The notes below the pieces were generated by a model, which was given only the letters and a program-made list of their open reading frames with translations, did not search any database and had not been told where the DNA came from. 2,204 bases of DNA. It comes from Escherichia coli (GTDB taxonomy: Bacteria > Pseudomonadota > Gammaproteobacteria > Enterobacterales > Enterobacteriaceae). The stretch lies in assembly GCF_003334335.1 (NCBI RefSeq), contig NZ_QOWQ01000093.1. The stretch is one strand, 5' to 3'. Positions 868 to 1,140 of this stretch are shown one piece after another; position 1 is the stretch's first letter, and each line of letters starts with the position of its first letter. Position numbers and translations under genes: made by a program.

Positions 868-1013
868 GGTTGATTCCTTTTAGTGATGAACCCTGCGCAC
901 AGGAATAACCAGCCCAAAGAGGGTTAACCAGACCACTGCCGGTTATCCACCAGGGCTCATCCTGAAAGGTTCTTTGGTTTATTTACGCTTGTGCGAAGCG
1001 CAGAAATGACAAA

Positions 1014-1030
1014 GGCACCATTACGGTGCC
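1014..1030 (-). terminator. Small hairpin GGCACC-N5-GGTGCC; on the minus strand it is followed by TTTGTCATTTCT. Weak candidate terminator or RNA stability element downstream of the endolysin
   Basis: Seen directly: 6-bp perfect inverted repeat with a 5-nt loop, 110 nt downstream of the endolysin stop, with a T-rich but interrupted tail on the minus strand. The stem is short, so termination efficiency is doubtful. Confidence 0.25.
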
Positions 1031-1140
1031 TCTGCGTGAAATAATGTTCCTGACTTTATTCACTTACATTTTGCCAGCTCGCAGGATTTCGTGTTATCCG
1101 CCCGCGTTGGCCAACGTCATTTTTCAGCAAAATATTCTGC

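Follow-up and report, generated by a model that had tools for sequence, protein, structure and literature searches.

What do two short inverted repeats do in the non-coding gap that follows the endolysin gene of a lambdoid phage of Escherichia coli? The window (the whole stretch of 2,204 bp that was analyzed) covers the lysis region of an E. coli phage of the lambdoid/Stx type. It is 99.5% identical to Escherichia phage PhiR5_1, and its bases 1–1647 share 97% identity with several Stx1a-converting phages and phi-O153, whose records name the genes R, ant, and Rz. The late genes of the window all lie on the minus strand, in the order R endolysin, 273-bp gap, and Ant antirepressor. The initial annotation had proposed that two small hairpins in the gap, here called hairpins A and B, could form a weak terminator or attenuator separating the endolysin from a rha-like gene, or could be part of a small RNA. 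The gap is indeed 273 bp long and contains no ORF conserved between alleles. The downstream gene, at first called rha-like, has been corrected to an antirepressor with a KilAC/ANT domain, in which a Rha domain was not detected (Table 1). No feature is annotated at the hairpin site in any record examined, and ARAGORN found no tRNA or tmRNA.

Table 1. Features of the lysis region, with positions counted from the first base of the window
Feature	Positions	Strand	Description or basis
Small membrane ORF preceding Rz		minus	only its start lies inside the window
Antirepressor-family gene, 231 aa, KilAC/ANT C-terminal domain (downstream gene of the gap)	172–867	minus	Pfam PF03374, E = 7.6e-28; PHROG 63 'anti-repressor Ant'
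R–ant gap, 273 bp	868–1140		between R and ant
Hairpin C, large stem-loop of the ant leader	876–969	minus	minimum-energy folds and RNAalifold consensus
Hairpin A	984–1002; core 986–1000 (CGCTT 986–990, gtgcg 991–995, AAGCG 996–1000)	minus	7 bp with wobble; no T-tract after it
T-rich tail TTTGTCATTTCTG after hairpin B	1001–1013 (reverse complement)	minus	
Hairpin B, terminator-like stem-loop	1009–1035; core 1014–1030 (GGCACC 1014–1019, attac 1020–1024, GGTGCC 1025–1030)	minus	fold, conservation, allele counts
Variable linker (left mosaic joint) between R 3' block and hairpin B	1036–1054	minus	
Conserved 86-nt block directly 3' of R	1055–1140	minus	kept in ant-bearing and ant-less prophages alike
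R endolysin, SAR-type lysozyme (upstream gene of the gap)	1141–1674	minus	ORF; PHROG endolysin, E = 5.6e-64; 'lysozyme R' in PhiR5_1
DUF1823 gene, convergent	1786–2046	plus	
DUF1327 late gene		minus	runs off the right end of the window

Two other structured places in the window are recorded here in their own right. A long inverted repeat within the R coding sequence, CCACGGCA...TGCCGTGG (1500–1572; −35 kcal/mol, z = −2.9), provides the most stable 61-nt windows of the whole sequence. Further, a strong bidirectional terminator-type hairpin with 12 bp and A and T tracts (2065–2096) lies ~20 nt past the end of the DUF1823 gene on the plus strand and inside the coding sequence of the convergent, overlapping DUF1327 gene; the 58-nt stretch that contains it, together with a small flanking stem, folds with about −23 kcal/mol (z = −4).

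Both inverted repeats of the gap, CGCTT-gtgcg-AAGCG and GGCACC-attac-GGTGCC, were found at exactly the coordinates first given for them, and the T-rich minus-strand tail described after the second is the TTTGTCATTTCTG of Table 1. The 61-nt stretch 980–1040 of the minus strand folds into hairpins A and B together (−26 kcal/mol, z = −4.7) and ranks 16–17 among the 858 sliding 61-nt windows of this sequence. Calculation of folding energies, which had been proposed as a check on both repeats, bore out hairpin B and not hairpin A. On the minus strand, hairpin B has a 6-bp core that includes five G-C pairs and closes a 5-nt loop, and it reaches 11 bp when its A-U and G.U extensions are counted; its energy of −18.8 kcal/mol (z = −5.8) was equalled by none of 200 shuffled sequences. 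Hairpin A alone folds with −6.2 kcal/mol (z = −1.3), and 23 of 200 shuffles were as good, which is the level of chance; by our own estimate, a 5-bp stem is expected ~1–2 times by chance per 273 nt. Two haplotypes of hairpin A exist, each of which can form a hairpin from the same 5' arm, UGCGC, but in a shifted register. We conclude that hairpin A is a small accessory stem of the ant leader with no demonstrable role of its own.

In its stem-loop and its placement, hairpin B is terminator-like. It lies ~110 nt past the R stop codon, downstream of the gene and on the transcribed (minus) strand, and its core, loop, extended stem, and energy agree with the GC-rich stem of ~5–14 bp and short loop expected of such an element. 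A GC-rich stem-loop followed by a T-rich tail is present only on this late-gene strand, the plus-strand tail not being T-rich. With a formula patterned on that of TransTermHP, the tail of hairpin B scored −4.18, within the top 1.1% of window positions, compared with −4.85 for the canonical terminator of relatives that lack ant. The U-tract is interrupted (UUUGUCAUUU), and the first bases of the tail are able to pair into the extended stem. A simple terminator scan (rule: 5 T in 8) did not call the window copy because the G.U-extended stem absorbs the first Ts, whereas the same hairpin and tail, with a different 5' flank and upstream of ParDE in strain A34, were called terminator-like by the same scan.

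The relatives that lack ant supplied the most direct comparison. In all four such prophages compared (PhiR12_1, AR_0055, MCJCHV-1, and FORC_069), which carry different downstream cargo, the 86-nt R 3' block is directly followed by AAAAACCCCGTTTGTTGGCnGCAAGCGGGGTTTTGTGTTTCTG, a bidirectional intrinsic terminator that the scan called (14 pairs). The alignment places hairpin B on this stem-loop column by column, and the two tails differ little (TTTGTCATTTCTG in ant-bearing versus TTTTGTGTTTCTG in ant-less prophages), with TTTGTnnTTTCTG as the common motif; in the aligned ant-bearing alleles the tail is invariant. From its stability, its conservation, and this positional equivalence to a canonical terminator, we infer that termination occurs at hairpin B. 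The reading of hairpin B with its tail UUUGUCAUUUCUG as a weak Rho-independent terminator or 3'-end-forming hairpin after R is assigned a probability of about 0.5, our confidence being only moderate because the commonest allele has a weakened stem. The initial suggestion of a weak terminator is thus the best supported reading, by the match of position and tail to the canonical terminator and by the copy called in A34, although the window copy itself escapes the scan. Hairpin B most likely acts as a weak transcription stop between the endolysin and antirepressor genes of a Shiga-toxin-type prophage, an ordinary feature of such phages that had gone unannotated.

The natural variation of hairpin B was followed in 131 copies taken from IMG/VR together with fetched loci. 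The allele of the window, GGCACC/GGTGCC, which forms a perfect stem, was present in about 55 copies. The commonest allele, GGCACC/GATGCC (60 of 131 copies), is that of the 933W/Min27 type and has a C.A mismatch; it folds no better than shuffled sequences (z = −0.4). A further 11 copies carry GGCACC/GGTGTC with a G.U wobble, and one copy each has GGCACT with a U.G wobble and GGCACA with an A.G mismatch. Changes on a single side mostly keep the pairing (G-C to G.U in the 11 copies and C-G to U.G in 1). Of the nine pairs of hairpin B, four are invariant, three vary on one side yet stay paired, two are broken in some alleles, and none shows a compensatory change. Because no pair has changed on both sides, covariation neither supports nor refutes hairpin B, and the covariation analysis envisaged at the outset brought no support, the 131 copies representing 2–3 haplotypes with little power. 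The initial grading of the evidence as weak is one with which we agree, in view of the mismatched commonest allele and the lack of compensatory covariation.

Hairpin B and its tail nevertheless form an island of conservation, with an identity of 0.93 compared with 0.80 and 0.76 in the flanks, whereas the identity of the gap is not above that of the R coding sequence. As only ~2–3 independent haplotypes exist, this conservation may simply reflect recent common ancestry. Further, we note that two unrelated ant genes, the 231-aa KilAC type of the window and the 189-aa Ant of 933W, Min27, and VT1/VT2-Sakai, have the entire leader in common, starting with hairpin B and ending at the Shine-Dalgarno (SD) sequence, and that homology stops at the start codon. 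A search for diverged homologues in a GTDB scan with one genome per prokaryotic species matched only a 392-bp contig, and a scan of IMG/VR found no hairpin B in a non-canonical context. The contig, assigned to Xanthomonas pisi DSM 18956 (NZ_JPLE01000286.1), consists of the R 3'-end and ant 5'-end of an E. coli Stx-type phage and is almost certainly a contamination of the Xanthomonas assembly. On the sequences searched, the element appears to be confined to lambdoid prophages of E. coli and Shigella, in 2–3 haplotypes, which leaves covariation analysis with little or no power.

The gap is a mosaic. Used as a query, its 273 bp matched in 1440 of 5426 complete E. coli genomes, and in many of these 1440 only query bases 188–273, which are the 86-nt R 3' block, matched (91–97%), whatever followed. 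The hairpin region alone (66-nt query, 975–1040) was found in 703 of the 5426 genomes, with a median of 4 places in those that carry it. Between the two, the linker region 1034–1063 has an identity of 0.80, the lowest in the first half of the gap, with at least 4 linker versions among the 131 copies. The R 3'UTR folds better than its shuffles (z = −4.3). Within the 86-nt block we also observed an 8-codon ATG...TAA mini-ORF (1094–1120, minus strand) with no obvious SD sequence, the start and stop of which are kept in most alleles while its interior varies. In phage 2H10 the block is absent and R overlaps Rz directly, without a gap, which identifies the R–Rz interval as a cargo slot. Elsewhere this slot holds ant, small ORFs, or ParDE with a Panacea-domain gene, with hairpin or terminator elements at the joints, and the interval looks like a cargo hot spot. 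In E. coli A34 (NZ_CP028741.1, 1592–4223), the slot contains a Panacea-domain gene, a ParD/ParE toxin-antitoxin pair, and a gene for an Ant N-terminal domain, with copies of the R 3' block and of hairpin B between them. One of these copies is a 52-bp unit (981–1032 of the window, hairpins B and A together) that stands alone upstream of the ParDE module; the second and shorter copy comprises only hairpin B and TTTGTCAT, ~360 nt after the Panacea-domain gene, its stem being kept via a G.U change.

Closer to ant, a third and larger structure, hairpin C, is predicted to pair CCUUUCAGGAUGA with UCAUCACUAAAAGG and so occlude the ant SD sequence AAGGA (875–879). It is part of the minimum-energy fold of both haplotypes (z = −3.4 and −1.5), and its RNAalifold consensus includes one compensatory C-G to U-A pair as well as one change from U.G to U-A. 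For the four SD bases that are paired, the predicted probability of being unpaired is 0.01 or less in the window allele and up to 0.31 in the 933W-type allele. In these models, hairpin C looks like a more convincing regulatory structure of the gap than the two small hairpins. In one IMG/VR sequence (IMGVR_UViG_2547132252_000005, near 6597 of the minus-sense extract), hairpin C is interrupted by unrelated sequence resembling the end of an IS element. Mutually exclusive with hairpin C is a long-range helix of 28 nt on the minus strand (971–998 with 893–920), which includes the sequence of hairpin A and carries two compensatory differences of the G-C/A-U type between the leaders of the window type and of the 933W type. 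Its energy falls short of the minimum-energy fold by 11 kcal/mol in the window type and by 4 kcal/mol in the 933W type, and a natural recombinant (L030) breaks it (39.2 versus 56.6 kcal/mol). Given its poorer energy and its loss in that recombinant, we set this helix aside as an unexplained observation.

The proposal of an attenuator was not supported. The small ORFs that span the hairpins lack conservation from allele to allele (12–26 aa versus 39 aa, in differing frames and with non-triplet indels), so that no conserved leader peptide was found, and no antiterminator competing with hairpin B was detected; the sole alternative helix found, the one just described, involves hairpin A. Nor was the proposal of a small RNA borne out by the searches of the gap, which found neither a promoter nor a match to Rfam, HnrS, Pas, or the Hfq-bound EcOnc RNAs. 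Rfam, searched at E values up to 10, gave only spurious hits to eukaryotic snoRNAs and miRNAs, none of them in 980–1035, and so no similarity to the prophage sRNAs AgvB, AsxR, Esr41, and STnc100 either. HnrS (EcOnc10-12) is a 66-nt multicopy prophage sRNA (bioRxiv 10.1101/2025.11.27.690950) that looked promising because of its copy number; it was rejected, as the window does not contain its core, recovered from oligonucleotide sequences, at up to 3 mismatches. PasA-D are prophage sRNAs of EPEC (PMC8550237; bioRxiv 10.64898/2026.05.13.724894); relative to the lysis cassette, PasA is encoded on the holin side, and a comparison of the gap by eye with the four Northern probe sequences showed none of them. 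In the Hfq-CRAC/EcOnc table of Tree et al. (2014, PMC4104026), no Hfq-bound peak falls in the homologous gap of Sakai Sp5 (1273543–1273812). A promoter scan of the gap found no promoter-like site, either for ant or for an antisense RNA. One extended −10-like sequence noticed by eye on the plus strand (TGaAATAAT, 1037–1045) was dropped because other alleles do not conserve it. Neither a LexA box (CTGT-N8-ACAG) nor a sigma-54 element (TGGCAC-N5-TTGCW) was matched when 1 or 2 mismatches were tolerated.

Against the terminator we weighed, as a doubtful though by no means far-fetched explanation, that the two repeats have no function and occur incidentally in a mosaic intergenic leader that came to be shared recently, their conservation then coming from common descent and from a position at the recombination joint between R and the cargo slot. 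This would fit a hairpin A at chance level, a gap no more conserved than R, a history of only 2–3 haplotypes in which recombinants (v8, v17, and v33) break between and around the hairpins, and a major allele that is mismatched in the stem without a double compensatory change anywhere in hairpin B. It is at odds, however, with the z score of −5.8, with the exact coincidence of hairpin B, in position and tail, with the canonical terminator of relatives, and with its reuse in two other contexts in A34. An unlikely alternative is that the hairpins would be part of a structured leader controlling the processing, stability, or translation of the ant mRNA, for example as an entry or protection site for RNase III or RNase E that acts with hairpin C, or as a two-state switch via the 971–998/893–920 helix. 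The leader common to two unrelated ant genes, the occlusion of the SD sequence by hairpin C in both haplotypes, and the two compensatory differences in the long-range helix all speak for such control, but the helix is energetically inferior and broken in a recombinant, nothing physically links hairpins B or A to hairpin C, no trigger is known, and the two haplotypes amount to a single evolutionary comparison.

Even less probable is a 3'UTR-derived sRNA (~1009–1140, minus strand, containing the 86-nt block), either cut out of the R mRNA or transcribed from a promoter of its own, with hairpin B as its terminator. That the block occurs in ~1440 genomes regardless of what follows, and is always succeeded by a terminator-type hairpin, would be expected of such an RNA, as would the favorable folding of the R 3'UTR; the late regions of such prophages are also known to be rich in sRNAs (HnrS, Pas, and AgvB/AsxR). 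The negative searches described above count against it, and the U-tail is poor for Hfq binding and the block no more conserved than R. We give scarcely any weight to the remaining explanation, in which the 17-bp palindrome GGCACC-N5-GGTGCC would be a DNA operator for a dimeric phage regulator of ant. The palindrome is perfect (6+6), conserved, and portable with its flank, yet no promoter, LexA box, or sigma-54 element is nearby, the commonest allele breaks its symmetry, and an explanation at the level of RNA suits the T-tail and the equivalence to a terminator better. Two more ambitious schemes, which we regard as quite unlikely, would combine several of these elements: either a multi-part RNA safety lock on the antirepressor (hairpin B as a terminator that can be read through, hairpin A with the covarying long-range helix, and the SD-occluding hairpin C, working as a switch or processed by RNase III), or an sRNA not described before, derived from the 3'UTR and multicopy in pathogenic E. 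coli, that would be formed by the 86-nt block and hairpin B. Were the safety lock true, the leader would decide whether Ant is made and hence the cross-induction of co-resident prophages.

If hairpin B is a weak terminator, the purpose we infer for it is the silencing of ant. In a lysogen, or before Q acts, RNA polymerase drifting into the late operon would stop or pause at hairpin B, and such a stop would insulate the antirepressor gene from stray transcription; hairpin C would serve as a second lock by hiding the ant ribosome-binding site, and the two together would keep the antirepressor silent in the lysogen. Read-through of terminators in the late operon under the action of Q is established lambda biology, and during lytic growth Q-modified polymerase from pR' would ignore the terminator, such that R, ant, and Rz would form one late message. 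Termination at hairpin B would help to explain how Stx-type prophages silence the antirepressor in the lysogen yet express it from the Q-antiterminated late transcript, leaky expression of the antirepressor being something that could trigger induction and toxin release. The terminator-like joints that accompany cargo inserted between R and Rz add incrementally to the annotation of a very common element and amount to no new principle.

Among known systems, the late-region sRNAs of EHEC and EPEC (HnrS, PasA-D, AgvB/AsxR, and StxS) resemble the element in being multicopy in prophages of pathogenic E. coli, in lying in the late region, and in ending in a hairpin and Us; the element differs from them in having no sequence or covariance-model match (for Pas, by eye), no Hfq peak in Sakai Sp5, no promoter, and a weak U-tail. 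In the immI region of phage P22, ant is controlled by Arc and Mnt operators and by the sar antisense RNA. There, as may be the case here, an antirepressor gene is kept silent by dedicated upstream control elements; unlike in P22, neither arc nor mnt genes could be found here, nor operators, a promoter, or an antisense promoter, and ant lies in the late operon between R and Rz. Hairpin C is comparable with the SD-sequestering leader hairpins of the RNA-thermometer kind in that an anti-SD sequence (CCUUU...) pairs with the AAAGG of the ant SD in both haplotypes, but with −32 to −43 kcal/mol its long helix is stable rather than marginal. The 'moron' units of lambdoid phages, as summarized from Juhala et al. 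(2000) in PMC4104026, are additional genes that sit between late genes and bring a promoter and a terminator of their own. The R–Rz interval is likewise an insertion slot with hairpin or terminator elements at its joints; in contrast to morons, the hairpin here precedes the cargo gene, and no promoter for ant is detectable in the window. The closest known example comes from E. coli prophages of the PhiR12_1 type, which lack ant and have a canonical terminator after R. Hairpin B differs from that terminator in an unrelated stem sequence, in a U-tract that is interrupted and lies partly in the stem, and in a mismatched major allele, whereas the two agree in strand, in position, in the preceding R 3' block, and in forming a GC-rich stem-loop with a near-identical tail.
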